Assembly (NCBI RefSeq): GCF_988243305.1
Contig: NZ_OZ547136.1
Direction: 5' to 3' (one strand)
DNA: 64,000 nt
Of the stretch, positions 50,193-60,233 are shown piece by piece. The translations under genes and the position numbers were made by a program. A model generated the notes under the pieces. That model searched no databases. It was not told where the DNA came from and saw only the letters and a list, made by a program, of their open reading frames with translations. Within the stretch, counting starts at the first letter, position 1, and each line of letters opens with the position of its first letter.

Positions 50193-50523
50193 TCGTGGCC
50201 GCCTTACTGATTTGTGAAATGAGTTGCAGGGTACGTTGCTGGTTTGCCAGCACCAGACGGGCTTCGTCCCGTTCACGCACAAGCACATGATTATTGTCTT
50301 CAAGACGCTGTGTCTTCTGGTGCATTCCCCATACCACGGCAGCCAGCACGCTCATCACCCCCAGCGCCGCCATACACCCTCCGGCAATCAGGGCCGGTAA
50401 GGGATTATTCACCGCAGCCACAGCACACCCCGGAGCACCACAACGACACACAACAGCGCAATCATGAGTGGTCGCCAGAAGCGGTTCAGACTTTCGGCAA
50501 ATCGTAGCGACATAACCATTCAT
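50023..50523 (-). CDS. putative inner-membrane spanin (i-spanin)
   Basis: TM segment ALIAGGCMAALGVMSVLAAVVWGM followed by coiled coil; immediately downstream of endolysin; start uncertain. Confidence 0.4.
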   Translation of the reverse strand: MNGYVATICRKSEPLLATTHDCAVVCRCGAPGCAVAAVNNPLPALIAGGCMAALGVMSVLAAVVWGMHQKTQRLEDNNHVLVRERDEARLVLANQQRTLQLISQISKAATNEKQQNMQHSEEQQSIVRRSLATVPAASVPVPDDVADRVRRAVCEIRAGEAGADPR

Positions 50524-50986
50524 CCGCCGAACGGCGGGCCTCAAGACCGGGGAGTTTTACCCCCTTTGAATAAATCCAGCGGATATACTGCTTACAGGAC
50601 GCGGGCATCTGCCCGGCATTGATCAGGCGCAGAAGCGTGGAGTTGCGAAAGTTCGTTTCACCGGCCCAGAAGATCCACGAAGCCAGCGCCACCGTCTGAC
50701 CACGGGTAAGCGGCACCTGAACATGACGATCGATAGCCGCAAAGGCCCATTTCATGTCCTTTTCCAGCAGTTCCAGACATTCTTCATCGGTTTTTGTCAT
50801 ACCCGGTTTCACATCCGGGCCGGTATGGCCGTGGCAGATGGTGGGGGTGCCGGTGGGGTCGAGATACGTGGTGTTTTCTTTCCCTTCCCAGTAGCCGGTG
50901 TAGTGCGTGGCAATAGTGAACGTCCCGGCTCCGGCCAGAACAAGGGCAATCAGCTTTTTACGCAGTGGCGCGGGGAGTTTTGGCAT
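50486..50986 (-). CDS. endolysin (GH24 lysozyme) with N-terminal signal-anchor-release-like segment
   Basis: E...D...T catalytic pattern (YWEGKENTTYLDPTGTPTICHGHTG) after hydrophobic Gly/Ala-rich N-terminus KLIALVLAGAGTFTIA. Confidence 0.8.
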   Translation of the reverse strand: MPKLPAPLRKKLIALVLAGAGTFTIATHYTGYWEGKENTTYLDPTGTPTICHGHTGPDVKPGMTKTDEECLELLEKDMKWAFAAIDRHVQVPLTRGQTVALASWIFWAGETNFRNSTLLRLINAGQMPASCKQYIRWIYSKGVKLPGLEARRSADEWLCRYDLPKV

Positions 50987-51057: not shown

Positions 51058-51480
51058 TCAGAAAAGCCGGGGCTGCGTGCGCTCCTGATGCAGGCGACGC
51101 TGGTTGCGGATAACGGAGTAAATCTGCGTCTCTGACATCTGGTAATGGCGGCGCAGGGTTTCAATTTTTTCGCCCTGGCTCCAGCGGGAAAAAATTTCAT
51201 TATTGCGCAGTTCGGTGAAAAGGGATTCACCGACCGGGAGATAATAACCACGCCCGCCCATGTACCCGGCCTGTGCGGCTGCAACCTTACGGGCAAGCAT
51301 TCCCGCCTGAGCAGGTTCAATCCCCTGACGGTGCAGTTCAGCACTGATCACATCAACCAGGTCCCGCAGCGTGCCGGGCCAGTTCTTTTTCAGCTCATCA
51401 TCAGGAATATCATCCAGACGGTCAATCAGCGCGTGCAGCTGTTCGCTGTCACCAAACATGCTCATCTGTGTTTCAGCCAT
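51058..51480 (-). CDS. Mor/C-family transcriptional activator
   Basis: 140-aa ORF with C-terminal HTH LRRHYQMSETQIYSVIRNQRR resembling Mu Mor/C. Confidence 0.7.
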   Translation of the reverse strand: MAETQMSMFGDSEQLHALIDRLDDIPDDELKKNWPGTLRDLVDVISAELHRQGIEPAQAGMLARKVAAAQAGYMGGRGYYLPVGESLFTELRNNEIFSRWSQGEKIETLRRHYQMSETQIYSVIRNQRRLHQERTQPRLF

Positions 51481-51550: not shown

Positions 51551-52063
51551 TTAAAAGGGGGAGGATTCTTCATACAGCCTGCAAACGCGCTCATAACTCA
51601 TCACTGTACGCGCTGACATCCCCAGCACATCCAGCATCTTGCGGCGGTGCCAGCGTTTGAGACGCTCCAGCACATCAGAGGCCAGCGCGGGGTGTTGTTC
51701 CAGCCACTGCCAGTTAGCCACACCTTCGCCGCCGTTCTGAGCGACCGTCTGCGATTTCACCCAGCGGTTAAGGGCTGTTTCCCCGCCATCAGAGATAAAG
51801 CCCTGCCGGTGCATCACCTTCCAGATGGCGCGAATTTTGGCGGTCACCGTACCCGGTTTTAAGGCCCGGTTAACCGGCTTCTGACGCACTTTAAAACCGC
51901 GTTTTTTGAAAACATCCAGCACGCGGGATAACTCATCCGGTGACATATCCCGGCAACTGGGTTTACCGGTGGCTGCCAGTAGTACGGATGTGTAGGTCTC
52001 ATGGTCAAGCTGTAGATCGCGTTTTGCGACATGTATTAAGGTAATCAGGGAAGCGCGATTCAT
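51551..52063 (-). CDS. GemA/gp16-like protein
   Basis: N-terminus MNRASLITLIHVAKRDLQLDHETYTSVLLAATGKPSCRDMSPDELSRVL resembles Mu-like gp16 (GemA) family as I remember it. Confidence 0.6.
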   Translation of the reverse strand: MNRASLITLIHVAKRDLQLDHETYTSVLLAATGKPSCRDMSPDELSRVLDVFKKRGFKVRQKPVNRALKPGTVTAKIRAIWKVMHRQGFISDGGETALNRWVKSQTVAQNGGEGVANWQWLEQHPALASDVLERLKRWHRRKMLDVLGMSARTVMSYERVCRLYEESSPF

Positions 52064-52127: not shown

Positions 52128-52475
52128 ATGAAAATAGATTACGATGAAGTATTAAGTATTCTCACAACTTTTCAGGATGCTGAAACACCTTTCCTTACAC
52201 TACAGGATCTGGGCATGGCTGAGGCAGAAGGAGAGGAAAAGGATAAAAAAGTTTTTCATCTTATGCTTCTCGCTGATAATGGCTCAATTGTTAATGGTGA
52301 TATGCAGTCAGAAACACCCAAATATATTGGTTTCTTTTTCCATTCTCTGGGCGTTGGTTTCAGAAACACGCCCATTATGCTTACCCAGCAGGGGCATGAT
52401 TTAGCTAACGCCCTGAGAAAAAACCAATCCTTGAAAGAATCAAAAAGGAGTTTACAGACGCACCATTTGATCTAA
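52128..52475 (+). CDS. hypothetical protein (115 aa) on opposite strand within early operon, low GC
   Basis: AAAGG SD 7 nt upstream of ATG; AT-rich; only plus-strand gene in this otherwise minus-strand early region. Confidence 0.5.
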   Translation: MKIDYDEVLSILTTFQDAETPFLTLQDLGMAEAEGEEKDKKVFHLMLLADNGSIVNGDMQSETPKYIGFFFHSLGVGFRNTPIMLTQQGHDLANALRKNQSLKESKRSLQTHHLI

Positions 52476-52498
52476 TTAAAGAAGTTACCAAATCAATG

Positions 52499-52807
52499 TT
52501 AACCAGGTTCGTCAAAGAACGTATTGGGATTGACTGAACAACTTAATTCAGCCAGTAATCGCAGGGCGGCGACAGCCGCCTGCTTGTCACTTCTTTTAGC
52601 TATTTCCGCAAGAGTATGCACAATCCATAACGGACTTAACGCCACGGCTGAATCCAGAATCATGTCATCCATAATAATTTCTGGCATATCCCGCTTGTCA
52701 CATTCTTTATCCATAAAAGAAACGAATTTCTCTGCATCTTCCGGTTTCATGCCTCCGGCGATAAGGATTTTGCGATATTCATAAGACGATCTTAATTCAA
52801 TACTCAT
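52499..52807 (-). CDS. hypothetical protein (102 aa)
   Basis: ORF in low-GC island. Confidence 0.4.
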   Translation of the reverse strand: MSIELRSSYEYRKILIAGGMKPEDAEKFVSFMDKECDKRDMPEIIMDDMILDSAVALSPLWIVHTLAEIAKRSDKQAAVAALRLLAELSCSVNPNTFFDEPG

Positions 52808-52822
52808 TATTCACCTGCCTGC

Positions 52823-53215
52823 TTAATCTGTTTCCAGTGCTTTGCTACGGGCTATAGCCTCACATTCAAAAAATACCGACTCCGGCACGCGCTCTTTTAA
52901 TTCACGAACAAGGAAATCATTAACGCGTTCATGACGTCTTATATTTCTTTCCTTTTCCTCCTGGCGCAATACAGCAAGGCGGTATTCAACAGCCCGGCGT
53001 TGTTTCTGAAAGACAGCCAGTGCTTTTCTGGCAGCATTACGCCATGCATCATCGCCACATGGTGCGTATTCAAGCTGAAATTTAATCTCTTCAATAGTTT
53101 CTTTGATTTTTGCCAGCAAGCTAAGACAGTCGCTTATTGTCTCCAGCTTTTCATTATCAATATAACTTCTCACGCATTCACCTCCCGTAATTCCGGTAAA
53201 GCCGAAATATGACAC
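52823..53215 (-). CDS. hypothetical coiled-coil protein (start probably internal)
   Basis: ORF overlaps upstream gene by 46 nt; Lys/Glu/Arg-rich. Confidence 0.4.
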   Translation of the reverse strand: MSYFGFTGITGGECVRSYIDNEKLETISDCLSLLAKIKETIEEIKFQLEYAPCGDDAWRNAARKALAVFQKQRRAVEYRLAVLRQEEKERNIRRHERVNDFLVRELKERVPESVFFECEAIARSKALETD

Positions 53216-53499
53216 CAGTGCGTCACCTGTCCGTCTTCATCTTCAAGGCAGGCTCCGGTTTCTTCATCAACAAAAAAGCCTTCATACCCCATATGGCCGA
53301 TGCGCAGCTCCTGACGGTGACCATACTGAACAATCAGCACGACAGCCTCCATATCAGGTGGGAAAGTATCATTCAGTGAATGCCAGGGATAACCGCGTAA
53401 ATCCCCGAAATAAACACCGGTCAGCGTTCCGCCACAGAGCGGCATTCCGGCGGCACACACAAGAGGTTCATCTGATTCAACAAATAAGGTCGTTATCAT
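53170..53499 (-). CDS. hypothetical protein (109 aa)
   Basis: ORF, 4-nt overlap with upstream gene. Confidence 0.4.
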   Translation of the reverse strand: MITTLFVESDEPLVCAAGMPLCGGTLTGVYFGDLRGYPWHSLNDTFPPDMEAVVLIVQYGHRQELRIGHMGYEGFFVDEETGACLEDEDGQVTHWCHISALPELREVNA

Positions 53500-54047
53500 G
53501 GCGTTAACTCCCGTAATACAGCGTCCTCGGCAGTCCGGCGACGGTAATAAACTGCGTGAGCAGAATGTTCAGATATTCCAAACTTTTCGCCAATTTCCCG
53601 GAATGACAGACGGCGTGGGTAATCGGAATCACGCAGCGCACGTATAAGACGTACATCATCATCAGATATGCGCGTGCCGGGGCGTAACTCTCCGCACTTT
53701 GTTAATCCAGCACCAATCATTCCTGCCCGACATCTGACAGAATCTTTATTACGTCCGAGATATTCTCCCATTTGCTGGCAGGTCATTGTTCTGGCATTTT
53801 TTCGAATAAACTTATCTTCATCAGGTGTAAATCTTGGGTGTTTATATTTCAGTAACTCCGGGTATGAACTGCGCAATACACCAGTCCGGTTATATACAGC
53901 CCAGACAGTTCTTTTTATTCTGGCAGCAATATCCTTAACCGGGGTGGATGAATAAAGCGCAATCAGCAGCGCATCTTCTTCAGGTGTCCACGGACGGACA
54001 TGAGCGGGGGCGCGACCTTTTAGTCCCATGGGTTGTAATTTCATCAT
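53496..54047 (-). CDS. hypothetical DNA-binding protein with repeated HTH-like modules
   Basis: Three similar segments WTPEEDALLIALY...IKRTVWAVYNR / FTPDEDKFIRKNAR...MGEYLGRNKDSVR / ISDDDVRLIRALR...FREIGEKFGISEHSAHAVYYRR. Confidence 0.45.
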   Translation of the reverse strand: MMKLQPMGLKGRAPAHVRPWTPEEDALLIALYSSTPVKDIAARIKRTVWAVYNRTGVLRSSYPELLKYKHPRFTPDEDKFIRKNARTMTCQQMGEYLGRNKDSVRCRAGMIGAGLTKCGELRPGTRISDDDVRLIRALRDSDYPRRLSFREIGEKFGISEHSAHAVYYRRRTAEDAVLRELTP

Positions 54048-54050
54048 GCA

Positions 54051-54566
54051 TCACCCCCTGACTCGCTTTTCAGCAGCATAAAACTCATCAGACAGTATTT
54101 CGGTCATTTTCTGTTTTGCGGGTTTTACGCCGCACTGAAGGTAAATCACATCGTCAACGCAGAACCACTTCACAGGGCCAAACAGGATTGCCGAGAAATC
54201 AATACCCAGCCAGAACAACAGCGCATCGGTTCTGGCATACGTGACGGGCGAATATTCACGCCACAGACTGTTCAGTTCATCAGAGGCAACACGCAGGGTT
54301 TTAGGGATACGTGATGTGCGCGGTGTGCAGCTCCAGCCATTCGACGCAGTCGGTTTTCGCCATAAGTCGCGATGAAAAGGATATTTGTCCTCCGTAAAAC
54401 GCAGTCCCTTAAAGCAAAATCCACTGATACCGGATACAAATACCGACCGGCACGCAACATTCAGCACGGCCTCAAGGCGTTTTGCCTCATCCTTAACTTT
54501 CTGGCAGTCCTGCTGGTATTTTTGCCACGCAGCCAGCGCGGAAGGGTTTGATGTTTTAAAGAACAT
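54051..54566 (-). CDS. hypothetical protein (171 aa)
   Basis: ORF translationally coupled to neighbours. Confidence 0.4.
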   Translation of the reverse strand: MFFKTSNPSALAAWQKYQQDCQKVKDEAKRLEAVLNVACRSVFVSGISGFCFKGLRFTEDKYPFHRDLWRKPTASNGWSCTPRTSRIPKTLRVASDELNSLWREYSPVTYARTDALLFWLGIDFSAILFGPVKWFCVDDVIYLQCGVKPAKQKMTEILSDEFYAAEKRVRG

Positions 54567-55099
54567 TACGCCACCTCCGCAGATATCCCGGCAGGCGCTG
54601 CTGTCCGGTCAACAATCAGGTAGCGCAGAACATGTTCAGTGATATTCCAGCCGCTTAAACCGCAGATAATGACGCCCAGGCGTATGTCGATATACGCCAT
54701 CACAAACTGGGGCACGCCTTCTTTCATGGCCTGCTCATCAACTTCAGCCACCACATAAACGGTTTCACAGGTCAGAACGCCCTGAGCAAATTCCCACGCC
54801 ATCGACGGAATATCATGCCCCTCAATCCATGGCAGGGATTTTCTGAAGCCGCACCACTGAACATCATCAGCCGCAGATTCCTGGCTGCATTTGCGACGAA
54901 CCGGCTGCACCGGGCGGGGGCGCGGAATATCATAAAAACCGTTACATTCCGTCAGCACGCCTGCATCAACCGCATCACGCAGAAAATAAACCATGGAGGA
55001 TGGCGGCATATTCATTTTTTCAGCCAGTACACCGCAGGTCAGGCGGCCATAAATACGCAGCCAGTTTTTAACCCCTTCAAGCACTTTTGCATCAATCAT
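54566..55099 (-). CDS. hypothetical protein (177 aa), possible N-terminal winged helix
   Basis: ORF downstream of gam. Confidence 0.4.
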   Translation of the reverse strand: MIDAKVLEGVKNWLRIYGRLTCGVLAEKMNMPPSSMVYFLRDAVDAGVLTECNGFYDIPRPRPVQPVRRKCSQESAADDVQWCGFRKSLPWIEGHDIPSMAWEFAQGVLTCETVYVVAEVDEQAMKEGVPQFVMAYIDIRLGVIICGLSGWNITEHVLRYLIVDRTAAPAGISAEVA

Positions 55100-55244
55100 G
55101 ATTTATTTCCCCACCACATTATTAATGACGATATAAACGTATTTCATATTTCTTAACCCTTATTTTCTGTTTTCAGGCGCAAGCAGTCCCCTGACGCGAG
55201 CGCCATAATTAAAATGAAGTGATATTTAATTGATTAATGCGGTG

Positions 55245-55775
55245 TTATTTATTCAGTCCGGCGTCCTGTTCAAAAGGCTCGACATAAAAACTTTCAGCGC
55301 CTTTATTCACCTTGATACCGGCAATGCCTTTCACCGCATCCGGCTCCGCCAGGACGGCTTCCTTGTTCACTTCCTCTTTCGTGCGGATGAAACGCTCAAG
55401 CCCCATACGGCGCAGCATTTCAATCACACCTTCCACATCACGGCTGACGCTGCATGATGGCGTTCCCAGCCGCCATGACACCGTTCCGGTGGTCAGATTG
55501 GCTGTTTTGGTTTTGCCGCCGTTCGTCAGCTCATCACGGTTGGTTTTGCACCAGTCCTGAATCCCTTTAAAAAGCACTTTGATTTGCTTTTTAAGATTTT
55601 CAATCTGCGGCGTATAACGGGCGGTGATTTCTGCCACTTCGTCATTCATCGCCGTTTCCAGGCGCAGCGCCTCTCGCTGAATATCTCCCAGGGTGCGGAT
55701 ATCACGGCTGACTTCTTCCCGGGTCTGCGGTGCCGCCTCGGCTGCGGCCTTTAATTTTGTAACGCGTTTAGCCAT
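55245..55775 (-). CDS. gam: Gam-like host-nuclease inhibitor (DNA-end binding, Ku-like)
   Basis: MAKRVTKLKAAAEAAPQTREEVSRDIRTLGDIQREALRLETAMNDEVAEIT...ELTNGGKTKTANLTTGTVSWR closely resembles Mu Gam. Confidence 0.8.
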   Translation of the reverse strand: MAKRVTKLKAAAEAAPQTREEVSRDIRTLGDIQREALRLETAMNDEVAEITARYTPQIENLKKQIKVLFKGIQDWCKTNRDELTNGGKTKTANLTTGTVSWRLGTPSCSVSRDVEGVIEMLRRMGLERFIRTKEEVNKEAVLAEPDAVKGIAGIKVNKGAESFYVEPFEQDAGLNK

Positions 55776-56903: not shown

Positions 56904-57131
56904 TTAGCTGACTTGTTTCGCACCAACAGAACGGCATATTCCGCTGTAAACTTCTGTCGCACCTTCGCGATCAAGTCCGGCAGATATCACCATTCGTGTG
57001 CGGTCATTAAATTCAAAAAGTAAATCGCCACATTCTTTATTTTCGGCCAGTGAAATCACCTTCACGTTATCGAAATTAACCAGGTAAAAGCGTCCGTAAA
57101 TATCAGGAATATTAAATACCGCCATAATCAC
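56904..57131 (-). CDS. hypothetical small protein at the kil position (directly downstream of B)
   Basis: 75-aa ORF overlapping B stop by 4 nt; in Mu the gene at this position is kil; assignment by position only. Confidence 0.35.
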   Translation of the reverse strand: MIMAVFNIPDIYGRFYLVNFDNVKVISLAENKECGDLLFEFNDRTRMVISAGLDREGATEVYSGICRSVGAKQVS

Positions 57132-58069
57132 ACCTGTGAGAGTAATTCAGGGTTGGTATAAACCTCTTTAAAGGCCGCATTAATATGTTTTTCTGTCAGC
57201 GCCGCGCCTTCACCGCTGGCGGTGAGCCACGCCTGGTTAAGCGTATGTGTCAGAACGCGTAACGCTCCCGGCTTTTCAGCGATAGCCTGCATGACGGCCA
57301 GCTCAGCCTCACCACTGATCCCCCACGCCATGGCAATGGCCAGCACATCCGCCTTTTTGGCCTTGCGAAGTTGTTTTGTACGGGCAAGACGGCTGAACAG
57401 GCGCGATAAATCATCAAAGGCGCGGCGTCCACCTTTAAACAATCCGCGCGGGTTACCAATAAGCACCATCCCGATCCCCGTGGCGTCCTGAATTGCCCGG
57501 AGTTGCTCCAGACCGTCAATACCAAGATGATCCGCCTCATCCACAATCACCAGTCCACGCGTTCCCATCAGGCGACGGCGGATGGCGCGGGATAATGCCC
57601 CTTTGTTCGCGCGGGTGTAATCAATCCCCAGCGCATCGGCCAGCTCCAGCAGACACTCCGTGACGCTGGAGTGCGCGGGTGACAGGGTGATCATCCAGGT
57701 GTTTGGTTGCTCCTGGCAGTAATTACGGGCAGTGGCCGTTTTACCCACACCCGGTACGCCCACAATAACGTTAATACAGCCCATCAGGCGAACCGCCTGA
57801 AACAGTGCGCGCAGCTCCTGGACTGTCTGAGTTTCCACAAACTGCGGCGGTTCCGGCAGTGCGCTTTGTTTATTCCAGTTCTCATACCAGGAGCGCAGGG
57901 AAGCAGCCACAGCAGCGTTATCGCCTTTATATTTTCCCTTACGGAAAGCCGATAATGTGCCGTCGGAAATTCCCGCCTCTCTGGCGATGGCATACTGCGT
58001 CAGTACGCCGCCATCAATAAGTTCATCAATGGTCTTGATTACATCGTTAATATCGGTCATATTATTCAC
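57128..58069 (-). CDS. B: transposition ATPase / target DNA activator B (AAA+)
   Basis: 313-aa ORF, Walker A GVPGVGKT, N-terminal HTH; directly downstream of transposase. Confidence 0.85.
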   Translation of the reverse strand: MNNMTDINDVIKTIDELIDGGVLTQYAIAREAGISDGTLSAFRKGKYKGDNAAVAASLRSWYENWNKQSALPEPPQFVETQTVQELRALFQAVRLMGCINVIVGVPGVGKTATARNYCQEQPNTWMITLSPAHSSVTECLLELADALGIDYTRANKGALSRAIRRRLMGTRGLVIVDEADHLGIDGLEQLRAIQDATGIGMVLIGNPRGLFKGGRRAFDDLSRLFSRLARTKQLRKAKKADVLAIAMAWGISGEAELAVMQAIAEKPGALRVLTHTLNQAWLTASGEGAALTEKHINAAFKEVYTNPELLSQV

Positions 58070-58142: not shown

Positions 58143-60233
58143 TCAGGCCAGCGGATCACTTTCTTTTAATTTCGCTTCGAGCAACTGCAATCCCCGCTGG
58201 AAATTACGCTCGTATTCTTCATCAGGTTCATCGTCAGCGACCGGTTGCTGAACGATCACCGTATTACCCACAGGGCGGTATATATTTTCCAGCCACGGCT
58301 CCTGTGGCTTGTGCTCCAGCACGTTGACAATCTCATCCTCGGCATCACGGATTTTTTCCTCTGCGCGTTTACGCATGCCTTTAAGGCGCTGCTGCTGTTT
58401 GTGGTATTCCGCGCTGACCGGGAAGGCTTCGCGTTTATTGCCGTCCCATACCGCCTCGCAAATCACGCTGCCATCCAGGCGACGTACGGTAATTCGTTCG
58501 GCATCATGAATGTCATAGCTGATAAGCACCTTACGACCATGCTCGTCACGCAGCTCGGGCGCGTAGTAAATATTATTCAGCCAGCGTATTTCACAGCGTC
58601 TTACAGGGCGCTCCACCATCGGCCGGAACATATCCCGCAGTTCAACATCGGACAGCCATTCAATTTCCGTGTCCTCTTCCGCCAGGCGTTTTTTTCTGAA
58701 CTCCGCCGGGCTGTAATGTTTACCGTTCGGCTTCATGGGTAATTCATCGTGCGGCCGGTTGTTGTACCACTCAACACCATCACGAATGGCATCAATCAGT
58801 TCAGCCCAGGACGGTGAATCACGCATCGCTGACTGCTGCCGGGCGTTCAGCCGTTTGCCCTGTTGCAGGGCAGTAAATGCCGAGCGTAAATCGCGGTTGG
58901 TTTTGCGTAACGTCTCGCGATCTGCACCTTTCCCGAAATAGGTGCGGTATTTACGGGCTATGCGCATCGGTAATGTGCGGTTAAGCCGTTCGATAATGCC
59001 TCGTCCCTGCGGATTACCGGCAATCCCGGTCGGGTGATTAATCCCCAGTCGCGGCAGTATCCCCACAACCTCCTTATCCAGGATGTCGGCGGTTTCCCCG
59101 GAGCCGTTATCCGAGTAATACAGAAACGGTTTGCCGTGATGGCGAATGCCGTGCTGTATGGCACCGGCTACGGCGAAAACATTTTCAGCCAGGTCAAGGC
59201 TCCAGCCCACCACAAAGCGCGTGCCACCGTCGATAACAAAGGTCACTTCCGGTGCAAATGGCCGACCGTGAACCGGGTGTGCGCATTTCAGCTTCATGCC
59301 GTGACCGTCACCAATCCAGACATAATTCACCGGCATTTTTGACCAGTCGCGGCGCGTGAATCCCTCAAGCTGGCGGTATTCACTGCCGGTCACCCGGCCT
59401 TTTTGTTTCACCACTTCCGGCAGTTTCTTCATTGCGCGGCGAATGGTGTCATAAGACGGCATGATATCGAGCATATAAGGCTCATCAGCGTGCCGGTGCT
59501 GCCATTCAGCGACAAAATCCTCGTAAGCCTCGGTCATTGGTCGGCCGTTTGACTGGCGATACTGCGCCAGAAATTCGGGCAGCCAGTTAATATCTTCGGC
59601 TTTTATTTCCTGGCGCTTACCCGGTGCCAGTAAAAGCAGGCGTTCAGCGGCGTTCTGCGCCTTGTTAAAGGCCGCAATCCAGCGTTTCAGCGTGATTTCA
59701 CTTAACGCGCGGCTGTTTCCCTTTTTGGCGTTCGCCGTCTCAACCATTGCCACAATGCGCTCGTCCAGCTGCGAACGTGCCAGGTTGTCAACGATAAACC
59801 GGATAGCCTTCGCACAGCTGAAACCAGGTTGTTGCGCGACTTTCAGAACTTCGCTGACGATCGCGATTCGTGCATCAGCCACCTGGCGCTGGTTTTCAGT
59901 CAGGGCATTAAGGCGTTCGACCATCAGTTGTGGTGATCCGCGATATGCCTCCACCGCATCAACCACGGCAGGCGAGCGTCTGGCCTTTGTCACCACTGGA
60001 GCCGGTGATTCATCGACTTTTTGAGTCATCAGTTGCAGGGCGTAGCGTTCACGTAATGCCTGCTGCGTCACTTCAGGTAAACAGTCGATGCTGTATTCAG
60101 TTGCTTTAGAGCCTGAGCGACGACGGGAACAACAGCTTTTCCCTTGTACGTAACGTTGTAATGCCTGGCGAATACCTTTTGTTGTAGCAGGCATTCCGGG
60201 CGCACCAATCAGTTCTTTTGCAATGACATACAT
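58143..60233 (-). CDS. A: Mu-type DDE transposase A
   Basis: 696-aa ORF directly downstream of ner; N-terminal DNA-binding domain and central catalytic region of Mu A size. Confidence 0.85.
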   Translation of the reverse strand: MYVIAKELIGAPGMPATTKGIRQALQRYVQGKSCCSRRRSGSKATEYSIDCLPEVTQQALRERYALQLMTQKVDESPAPVVTKARRSPAVVDAVEAYRGSPQLMVERLNALTENQRQVADARIAIVSEVLKVAQQPGFSCAKAIRFIVDNLARSQLDERIVAMVETANAKKGNSRALSEITLKRWIAAFNKAQNAAERLLLLAPGKRQEIKAEDINWLPEFLAQYRQSNGRPMTEAYEDFVAEWQHRHADEPYMLDIMPSYDTIRRAMKKLPEVVKQKGRVTGSEYRQLEGFTRRDWSKMPVNYVWIGDGHGMKLKCAHPVHGRPFAPEVTFVIDGGTRFVVGWSLDLAENVFAVAGAIQHGIRHHGKPFLYYSDNGSGETADILDKEVVGILPRLGINHPTGIAGNPQGRGIIERLNRTLPMRIARKYRTYFGKGADRETLRKTNRDLRSAFTALQQGKRLNARQQSAMRDSPSWAELIDAIRDGVEWYNNRPHDELPMKPNGKHYSPAEFRKKRLAEEDTEIEWLSDVELRDMFRPMVERPVRRCEIRWLNNIYYAPELRDEHGRKVLISYDIHDAERITVRRLDGSVICEAVWDGNKREAFPVSAEYHKQQQRLKGMRKRAEEKIRDAEDEIVNVLEHKPQEPWLENIYRPVGNTVIVQQPVADDEPDEEYERNFQRGLQLLEAKLKESDPLA

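Follow-up and report, generated by a model that had tools for sequence, protein, structure and literature searches.

A Myb-like triple helix-turn-helix protein next to gp11- and gp12-like genes in the early region of a Mu-like Escherichia coli prophage

For decades the semi-essential early region of bacteriophage Mu has carried the label "largely uncharacterised", and the literature describes it as "largely unknown" (PMC3820752). Low-level transcription from Pe is reported to run through the semi-essential genes in Mu lysogens, with a proposed benefit to the host (PMC3820752), and the functions arm, cim, and sot are reported to lie in the region, in a paper that makes no ORF assignments (PMC4553209). 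Among its genes are gp9/E8 (99 aa), upstream of gam; gp11 (Mup11, formerly E10-E12), directly after gam and overlapping gene 12 by 1 nt; and gp12 (Mup12, formerly E13), followed by a 60-aa gp13. A literature search found no functional or experimental study of gp9, gp11, gp12, or the triple helix-turn-helix (HTH) family described below.

In Myb repeats, three regularly spaced tryptophan or other aromatic residues form the core, and the manner in which the R2R3 repeats of c-Myb bind double-stranded DNA is known. Members of the Lrp/AsnC family carry an N-terminal HTH and a C-terminal RAM/ACT-like effector domain, and GcrA, which binds sigma-70 and also has a Myb-like DNA-binding domain, depends on methylated sites. 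The locus compared with these systems here lies in a 64,000-nucleotide stretch of contig NZ_OZ547136.1 (the window). The analysis provides handles on the semi-essential region and not a solution to it.

Gene layout and junctions

Three genes on the minus strand form the locus, encoding a gp11-like early protein of 177 aa (54566..55099), a gp12-like early protein of 171 aa (54051..54566), and a triple Myb-type HTH protein of 183 aa (53496..54047), all three as ORFs at the positions that the preliminary description had assigned to them. Their flanks encode MuA, MuB, Gam, GemA, Mor, and lysozyme, in the same order as in Mu. Values of dN/dS between 0.10 and 0.30 across the trio indicate purifying selection, with 0.13 for the 171-aa gene and 0.30 for the 183-aa gene; on this account they are genuine early genes, conserved in this Mu-like prophage of E. 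coli. Their families are known ones of an ordinary kind, with entries in Pfam, PHROGs, and RefSeq. The trio would be transcribed within a long early transcript running from the transposase genes to Mor. Promoter-like and terminator-like sites in the region were no more frequent than in shuffled sequence, an Rfam scan of the region gave no match, and an NCBIfam search returned nothing useful.

The preliminary description considered the three ORFs coupled by overlaps of 1-4 nt, which is correct for the 177-aa/171-aa junction (TAATG, overlap of 1 nt) and for the junction of the 183-aa gene with the next ORF (ATGA, overlap of 4 nt), whereas the 171-aa and 183-aa genes are separated by a 3-nt spacer. 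Read directly from the sequence, this junction is AGGGGG-TGA-tgc-ATG (54045..54060, minus strand), with the stop codon, spacer codon, and start codon in one frame; the AGGGGG just 5′ of the 183-aa start, inside the end of the gp12-like gene, is a likely ribosome-binding site. An identical 3-nt spacer separates the gp12-like and HTH genes of E. coli STEC1585. A gp12-HTH fusion produced by stop-codon read-through was considered since the ORFs share a frame, and was rejected because in Salmonella the orthologous genes lie in different frames, with an overlap of 4 nt. Co-expression would be maintained by ribosomes passing from one gene to the next at the three junctions (TAATG, TGA-3nt-ATG, and ATGA). 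The next ORF, 3′ of the triple-HTH gene, encodes 109 aa (53170..53499, minus strand; phrog_6925, E 9e-51), has a dN/dS of 0.13, and follows the HTH gene in most Mu-like loci and in Salmonella; it shows no homology to Mu gp14.

The gp11- and gp12-like proteins

The 177-aa protein is 69% identical to Mu gp11 over its full 177 aa, its gene likewise lies directly after gam with a 1-nt overlap with the following gene, and it matches all 78 profile positions of Pfam PF25754 Gp11_C (E 5.8e-41; 139.2 bits against a cut-off of 27). By sequence it is an orthologue of Mu gp11, with nothing notable differing. Its layout comprises a winged-helix-like three-helix domain at about aa 1-50, seen in a low-confidence model, a disordered linker at about 50-90, and the Gp11_C alpha/beta domain at 90-167. 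Foldseek matches of the protein to Lrp/AsnC-type architectures, with that low-confidence model as the query, are not significant (E 0.14-3), and sequence comparison with the PDB gave no credible match.

The 171-aa protein shares 54% identity with Mu gp12 over 99% of its length and falls in phrog_2314 (E 1e-84); its placement in PF26885 Phage_Mu_Gp12 comes through 94%-identical relatives to which that family was pre-assigned. Sequence similarity identifies it as an orthologue of Mu gp12, with the same gene position and five residues fewer at the C-terminus. In the AlphaFold2 (AF2) model (pLDDT 80-94), the predicted fold consists of a strand, a long helix, a beta-hairpin, and a mixed alpha/beta region, for which no solved structural analogue was found; no PDB sequence matched either. 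A fused gp11-linker-gp12 model reproduced both folds, but the common winged-helix domain dominated the fold searches, and no structural analogue was established for Gp11_C or gp12. Phages of Klebsiella, Pseudomonas, and Vibrio carry remote gp12 relatives, 26-30% identical, in their early regions.

These matches alter the picture of a trio unusual for Mu, as two of its members are homologues of Mu gp11 and gp12 and the third has a shorter Mu relative, gp9/E8. The proteins had also been thought larger than typical Mu early proteins, which is wrong for the gp11- and gp12-like pair, as both Mu counterparts have 176 aa. Since gp9, gp11, and gp12 are themselves uncharacterised, the homology found does not extend to well-characterised Mu early proteins. 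The trio may have the host-takeover or regulatory role first suggested for it.

Modules and relatives of the 183-aa protein

The 183-aa protein is identical to RefSeq WP_000977058.1, named "SANT/Myb-like DNA-binding domain-containing protein", and belongs to a 100% identical cluster of 447 member sequences. It is basic, with 35 K+R against 22 D+E and a net charge of +13. Residues 2-182 match phrog_323 (E 2e-52), whose label "transcriptional regulator, D5-like" is annotation only and is carried by the Mu and D108 gp9 records as well.

AlphaFold2 predicts an entirely alpha-helical protein (mean pLDDT 79.6) of three three-helix modules at residues 22-59, 75-110, and 129-169, each with a pLDDT of about 84-93, followed by a C-terminal helix and with no beta-alpha-beta domain. 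Short linkers connect the modules, each of which has the layout of a Myb/SANT-like HTH, a three-helix repeat of about 50 aa in which the HTH is made by helices 2 and 3. Module R1 (aa 18-59; 53871..53996, minus strand) starts with WTPEED and has predicted helices at 22-31, 37-44, and 48-59; it aligns to the R2 and R3 repeats of c-Myb and to the B-Myb repeats, and its W20 is invariant in a broad family alignment. Module R2 (aa 71-110; 53718..53837, minus strand) starts with FTPDED and has helices at 75-83, 90-97, and 101-110. Module R3 (aa 125-169; 53541..53675, minus strand) starts with a degenerate ISDDDV and has helices at 129-140, 149-156, and 160-169; its residues 130-164 give sub-threshold Pfam matches to HTH_AsnC-type and HTH_10 families.

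Three W/F-TP-E/D-ED repeats had been proposed. The motif [WF]TP[DE]ED occurs exactly twice, at residues 20 and 73, which are 53 residues apart, and is found in no other ORF among the 819 that the window contains (stop to stop, 40 aa or longer), a distribution that chance does not account for. In the supposed third repeat (residues 125-171, ISDDDV...) the W/F-TP part is missing. Sequence self-comparison of the modules is weak (R1/R2 z = 2.5, R2/R3 z = 1.9, R1/R3 none), and it is at the level of predicted structure that the three-fold repeat is real. The structure prediction envisaged in the preliminary description gave three modules by AF2. Foldseek with the whole 183-aa model found nothing in the PDB at E <= 0.001, a null probably owed to the arbitrary relative positions of the modules.

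Searched alone against the Myb/SANT-like Pfam families (PF00249 / PF13921), the protein stays under the gathering cut-off of 24.4 bits with a score of 20.7 (E 4.5e-4); two of its relatives, P0034 at 32.4 bits and P0024 at 24.4 bits, attain it. A profile built from 28 family members matches the PDB sequences of c-Myb (E 4.8e-8), B-Myb (E 5.4e-8), and 2LVS (E 1e-5), the range for the R2R3 structures of c-Myb and B-Myb (PDB 1H88, 1A5J, 1MSE) being 5e-8 to 6e-7. In c-Myb and B-Myb, three-helix repeats, each about 50 aa long, likewise stand in tandem with a W-[TS]-x-EED start and equal spacing. Unlike these two, the 183-aa protein has a third module nearer to bacterial HTH types (AsnC-type, sigma region 4), and it is a phage protein that lacks an activation domain. 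The Myb tryptophan triad is not kept in the family: W20 is invariant, the position of F73 is aromatic or aliphatic, and the second and third positions are aliphatic. Because only the first Myb aromatic position is kept, the protein is termed Myb-like and not canonical Myb.

The Cbp1-type CRISPR-repeat-binding protein (PDB 2LVS) is also small and basic and consists only of tandem HTH modules and linkers. It is the top Foldseek match to the 183-aa model (probability 0.99, 103 columns, 22% identity, though with an E of only 0.07), and its profile match covers residues 34-113. This is an archaeal chromosomal protein, however, and its TM-scores against the model are low because the relative module positions differ. 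A further candidate identity came from alleles 72-74% identical to the 183-aa protein, which RefSeq names Lrp/AsnC family; it was set aside, as the protein has no RAM/ACT domain and its HTH_AsnC-type match scores 19.1 bits against a cut-off of 27. Taken together, the sub-threshold Pfam Myb and HTH_AsnC matches, the RefSeq name, the AF2 model, and the family profile at E ~5e-8 support the original description of the protein as consisting of Myb/SANT-like, also sigma-region-4-like, HTH units.

Family distribution and proposed function

Mu gp9/E8 aligns to residues 65-167, spanning R2 and R3, with an hhalign probability of 98.3% (E 1.2e-14; HMM E 4.6e-14), a relationship that pairwise BLAST leaves undetected. 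It shares PHROG 323 and is also an early gene of the semi-essential region, but it has two modules instead of three, lacks the N-terminal peptide and R1, and lies upstream of gam whereas the 183-aa gene lies downstream of gp12. By these profile comparisons Mu gp9 and the 183-aa protein found in Mu-like prophages of E. coli and Salmonella form one HTH family. A single family gene was present in every Mu-like element examined, its place being ahead of gam in some and behind gp12 in others. The gene follows gp11-gp12 in 41 of 41 Mu-like viral contigs, and this order recurs in Salmonella prophages; the long HTH gene is not at the post-gp12 position in Mu, D108, or SfMu, where gp12 of Mu precedes gp13, to which the 183-aa protein has no homology. 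In P2-like prophages (18 contigs) a family gene is part of the early operon and precedes the adjacent replication initiator gene, A. Long multi-repeat relatives lie on short metagenome contigs with uninformative context.

Variation in the family is unevenly distributed. Helix 3 of R2 is the most variable element (entropy 2.76 bits in the broad alignment) and helix 3 of R3 is also highly variable, while helices 1 and 2 of R3 (DVxLIRxLRD, FxEIGxKF) are the best conserved part. Also conserved are the C-terminal helix and an N-terminal peptide, MxLKPMGxPGKCPAH, which is predicted to be disordered. In a comparison of two prophage variants from E. coli, the HTH gene has a dS of 0.60 and its flanks one of 0.15; judged from these sequences, the gene is an allelic mosaic patch with a separate recombination history.

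Most likely, as far as can be inferred, the trio occupies the central part of the semi-essential early region in a transposable, Mu-like prophage of E. coli, and the HTH gene is a portable cassette for an accessory regulator that is expressed from the early transcript and reads DNA sequence as a monomer (probability of this reading about 0.55). Like c-Myb R2R3, a single molecule of the protein would contact double-stranded DNA, monomeric binding being assumed from the tandem architecture only, and would read about 25-30 bp because the third helix of each module would enter successive major grooves. The hypervariable third helices would fix allele-specific targets, and the conserved elements, namely the N-terminal peptide, the KCGD linker, helices 1 and 2 of R3, and the C-terminal helix, would form a constant scaffold or partner-binding surface. 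The protein's role, early in the lytic cycle, would be accessory, either regulatory or architectural, and not that of an essential replication component. Third-helix variability could equally reflect a lack of constraint or an arms race at a protein-binding surface, and the conserved, predicted-disordered N-terminal peptide points to a protein partner outside this main explanation. A specificity-variable early regulator would explain a conserved early function in two major temperate phage groups. The presumed recognition helices differ between alleles, one of which, WP_198790362.1, is 72% identical to the 183-aa protein.

A far more speculative extension, to which little probability is attached, makes the family a "reprogrammable" DNA-reading cassette common to two temperate lineages that are unrelated, the Mu-like phages and the P2-like Peduoviridae, with a constant scaffold and partner peptide and fast-diversifying recognition helices. 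Such a cassette might read phage Dam-methylated sites as GcrA does, and might drive an early host-takeover or replication-enhancing step, and if real would supply a molecular player for a Mu function such as arm or cim.

The triple-HTH protein might instead be a host-takeover factor acting on RNA polymerase, a sigma region 4 mimic or GcrA-like protein that redirects early lytic host transcription. Pfam Sigma70_r4 or Sigma70_r4_2 is recorded on several close homologues and also scores on relatives, and GcrA (PF07750) matches fall on multi-repeat relatives; the window protein itself has no GcrA or Sigma70_r4 match at E <= 0.1. A Dam-type methyltransferase directly 5′ of the HTH gene in several P2-like prophages recalls the methylation dependence of GcrA, but this adjacency is limited to about one third of P2-like viral contigs and none of the Mu-like ones. 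The conserved N-terminal peptide and C-terminal helix, which have no obvious DNA role, would suit a polymerase contact; the strongest significant similarity, however, is to DNA-contacting Myb repeats, and the concentration of variability in third helices fits a change of DNA specificity, leaving this alternative improbable. Much the same standing is given to the idea that gp11, gp12, and the triple-HTH protein form one three-part module, for example Mu arm or cim, in which gp12 would bridge two DNA binders, gp11 with its winged helix and the HTH protein. The invariant gene order, the tight junctions, and the reported presence of arm, cim, and sot in the region (PMC4553209) are in keeping with such a module. 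The parts nevertheless occur separately: the HTH family is found in P2-like phages that have neither gp11 nor gp12, gp12 relatives stand without gp11 or the HTH protein in the Klebsiella, Pseudomonas, and Vibrio phages, gp12 is missing from Yersinia phage vB_YpM_23, which has gp11, Mu has gp11-gp12 and no long HTH gene, and the HTH gene recombined separately, as the contrast in dS indicates.

The accessory-regulator reading also has to be weighed against the quite unlikely case that at least one of the trio is a defence, anti-defence, or superinfection-exclusion gene that serves the lysogen through low-level early-promoter transcription. Pe transcription of this kind is reported in Mu lysogens (PMC3820752), and the HTH gene is mosaic and fast-diverging, as accessory genes often are. 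Against this, neither a catalytic nor a membrane domain is present in the trio, gp11 and gp12 belong to the conserved, core-like gene set of Muvirus genomes, and the anti-phage defence profiles of PADLOC-DB gave no match at E <= 0.1 for any of the three proteins. One chance-level PADLOC match fell on a neighbouring gene.

The early operon and its gp11- and gp12-like genes

The early half of a Mu-like transposable prophage lies on the minus strand of the window, between 50 and 61 kb. Genes for transposase (58143-60233) and MuB (57128-58069) are followed by five small ORFs and Gam (55245-55775), which lies directly before the three ORFs studied here; three more small ORFs then precede GemA (51551-52063), Mor (51058-51480), and lysozyme (50486-50986), with all named genes on the minus strand. 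Prophage DNA at 99.8% identity to the window is found in E. coli TOE17, in which RefSeq annotation calls the identical three ORFs, and 231 of 5,426 complete E. coli genomes contain related DNA. Neither promoter-like sites (4 versus 5.6 expected) nor terminator-like sites (5 versus 4.2) exceeded shuffled sequence and Rfam had no match in the region, which fits a single long early transcript.

The 177-aa protein (54566-55099, minus strand) matches Pfam Gp11_C (E 5.8e-41) and phrog_1949 (E 8e-106) and is 69% identical to Mu gp11 over its full length, while the 171-aa protein (54051-54566, minus strand) is 54% identical to Mu gp12, and its close relatives were already assigned to PF26885 Phage_Mu_Gp12. 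The preliminary description took these proteins to be larger than typical Mu early proteins, yet Mu gp11 and gp12 have 176 aa each, occupy the same positions after gam, and share the same 1-nt overlap; both proteins are therefore typical Mu early proteins. The Mu record lists gp11 and gp12 as hypothetical, and the semi-essential region has been described as "largely unknown" or "largely uncharacterized" (PMC3820752).

An AlphaFold2 model of a gp11-linker-gp12 fusion (block alignment of 53 sequences) predicts a gp12 part with a strand, a 28-residue helix, a beta-hairpin, and then mixed alpha/beta structure (pLDDT 80-94), a moderately confident Gp11_C domain (pLDDT 67-83), a disordered linker at gp11 residues 50-90, and, at low confidence (pLDDT 48-60), an N-terminal three-helix bundle. 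The two genes are separable, with gp12 relatives found without gp11 in Klebsiella, Pseudomonas, and Vibrio phages, and gp11 without gp12 in Yersinia phage vB_YpM_23.

All three genes had been described as overlapping by 1-4 nt. This holds for the 177-/171-aa junction (TAATG, 1 nt) and for that between the 183-aa gene and the next, 109-aa ORF (53170-53499, minus strand; ATGA, 4 nt), but the 171- and 183-aa genes, which share a frame, lie 3 nt apart (AGGGGG-TGA-tgc-ATG), an arrangement still compatible with re-initiation. As only a single Cys codon stands between this TGA and the in-frame ATG (54045-54053, minus strand), read-through would fuse both proteins. The same arrangement is present in E. 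coli STEC1585; it is probably incidental, because the Salmonella relatives overlap by 4 nt in a different frame.

A DUF2513-domain gene on the plus strand (52128-52538; WP_000687317.1 in the TOE17 copy) lies amid the minus-strand operon between a 102-aa ORF and GemA, and is a possible moron or accessory gene; Mu gp15 is likewise on the opposite strand in a similar position. The stretch from gam (or DUF3164) to gp11 varies: in the window it is 145 nt of non-coding DNA (55100-55244), in Yersinia phage vB_YpM_23 (locus L009, 934-1482) it holds a 182-aa ORF, and in Salmonella prophages (loci L018, 4368-4946, and L019, 4392-4946) it holds either a DUF5420 protein or an ORF of 184 aa. Within the prophage (28000-61300), G+C content is 55-60% in the late genes (~30-52 kb) and 45-50% in the semi-essential early region (52-56 kb), a drop that fits a mosaic, often exchanged early region.

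A triple Myb-like protein

The 183-aa protein (53496-54047, minus strand) is identical to RefSeq WP_000977058.1, a "SANT/Myb-like DNA-binding domain-containing protein". The three repeated HTH-like modules noticed earlier are borne out by its AlphaFold2 model (13-sequence alignment, pLDDT 79.6), which predicts three three-helix modules, R1 (aa 18-59), R2 (71-110), and R3 (125-169), and a C-terminal helix. The motif [WF]TP[DE]ED appears twice, 53 residues apart, and is absent from every other ORF of the window (819 ORFs scanned). Scored alone, the protein falls under the Pfam Myb threshold; a 28-member family profile matches c-Myb R2R3 (E 4.8e-8), B-Myb (E 5.4e-8), and the tandem-HTH protein 2LVS (E 1e-5), which is also the top Foldseek match of the model. 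Since the Myb tryptophan triad is not kept in the family, "Myb-like" is the right level of assignment. Alleles at 72-74% identity carry the RefSeq name "AsnC family protein", which is unjustified for a protein lacking an effector domain.

The protein is basic (35 K+R versus 22 D+E). Its N-terminal peptide, M-x-L-K-P-M-G-x-P-G-K-C-P-A-H-V-R (residues 1-17; window 53997-54047), is strongly conserved family-wide and predicted to be disordered (pLDDT from below 50 to 62), which suggests a partner-binding short linear motif or an arm for the DNA minor groove.

Selection and possible function

Compared with the E. coli STEC1585 prophage variant, all four genes are under purifying selection, with dN/dS of 0.10 (gp11-like), 0.13 (gp12-like), 0.30 (183-aa gene), and 0.13 (109-aa ORF). 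Between two E. coli prophage variants (window 53496-54047 and locus L010, 3397-3948), dS is 0.60 in the HTH gene versus 0.15 in both flanking genes, and dN/dS is 0.30 versus 0.10-0.13; given the difference in dS, the HTH gene is an allelic mosaic, or recombination, patch. Across the family, the most variable elements are the third helices of R2 (2.76 bits) and R3 (2.52 bits), and the most conserved are R3 helices 1-2, the K-C-G-D linker, and the N-terminal peptide.

In c-Myb R2R3, HTH modules that follow one another are known to occupy consecutive major grooves. On the most likely reading, the 183-aa protein would bind dsDNA in the same way, as a monomer with its modules in successive grooves; its third helices would set allele-specific targets, and its conserved parts (peptide, linker, and C-terminal helix) would serve as a constant scaffold or partner surface. 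It would then act early, as an accessory regulator or an architectural factor. A takeover factor directed at RNA polymerase, sigma-region-4-like or GcrA-like, is an unlikely alternative reading of these modules, and it is just as doubtful that gp11, gp12, and the HTH protein form one three-part module; the independent occurrence of the parts speaks against an obligate one. A role in defence or exclusion is less probable still, and PADLOC gave no matches.

The finding is real but ordinary: two of the genes are orthologues of Mu genes that are themselves uncharacterised, and the third belongs to a catalogued family of Myb-like HTH phage proteins. The family identities, three-module architecture, purifying selection, cassette distribution, and variable third helices are computed rather than experimental results. 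Added here are a link to Mu gp9, a cassette common to P2-like phages, and recognition-helix variability, which make function open to experiment.

Distribution of the HTH family

A phage tblastn search with the 183-aa protein gave no match in Mu, D108, or SfMu, and in Mu and D108 an unrelated 60-aa gp13 sits where the window has the HTH gene. A two-module relative does exist in Mu: gp9/E8 (99 aa), encoded upstream of gam, matches the family over residues 65-167 of the 183-aa protein (hhalign probability 98.3%, E 1.2e-14). A plain HMM also detects it (E 4.6e-14) and gives the same result for D108 and a Yersinia Muvirus phage. Window-type E. coli and Salmonella prophages have the long form after gp12 only, with no family member before gam, and therefore every element examined carries just one.

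Mu-like contigs make up 41 of 60 related IMG/VR contigs, all with the order gp11-gp12-HTH. The 18 P2-like ones, which carry integrase, Cox, and replication gene A, have the HTH gene in their early operon, ahead of gene A and sometimes immediately preceded by a Dam-type methyltransferase. The P2-like context recurs in Logan contigs, NCBI contigs, and Citrobacter phage Shae_phiSM. The HTH gene is thus a cassette that moves from one early operon to another among unrelated temperate phages.

In P2-like loci (L003, L004, L005, L015, L016, L017, and L064-L069), the HTH gene often lies right after the Dam-type (MethyltransfD12) gene, sometimes overlapping it, and before gene A; a PAPS-reductase-like gene separates the HTH gene from gene A in L015 and L067. 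A full-library profile search returned 9,889 proteins at E <= 0.001, including ~25 clusters of full-length, ~180-aa proteins. Many members are longer: metagenome proteins of 400-880 aa (P0023, P0026, P0029, and others) have 5-9 tandem Myb-like/sigma-region-4-like HTH units, fused in P0023 to a superfamily 2 helicase (ResIII/Helicase_C type); the contigs of such long proteins (L020-L022) are too short for gene context. Mycobacteriophage tblastn matches to R1-R2 lie within or adjoin methylase and HNH endonuclease genes.
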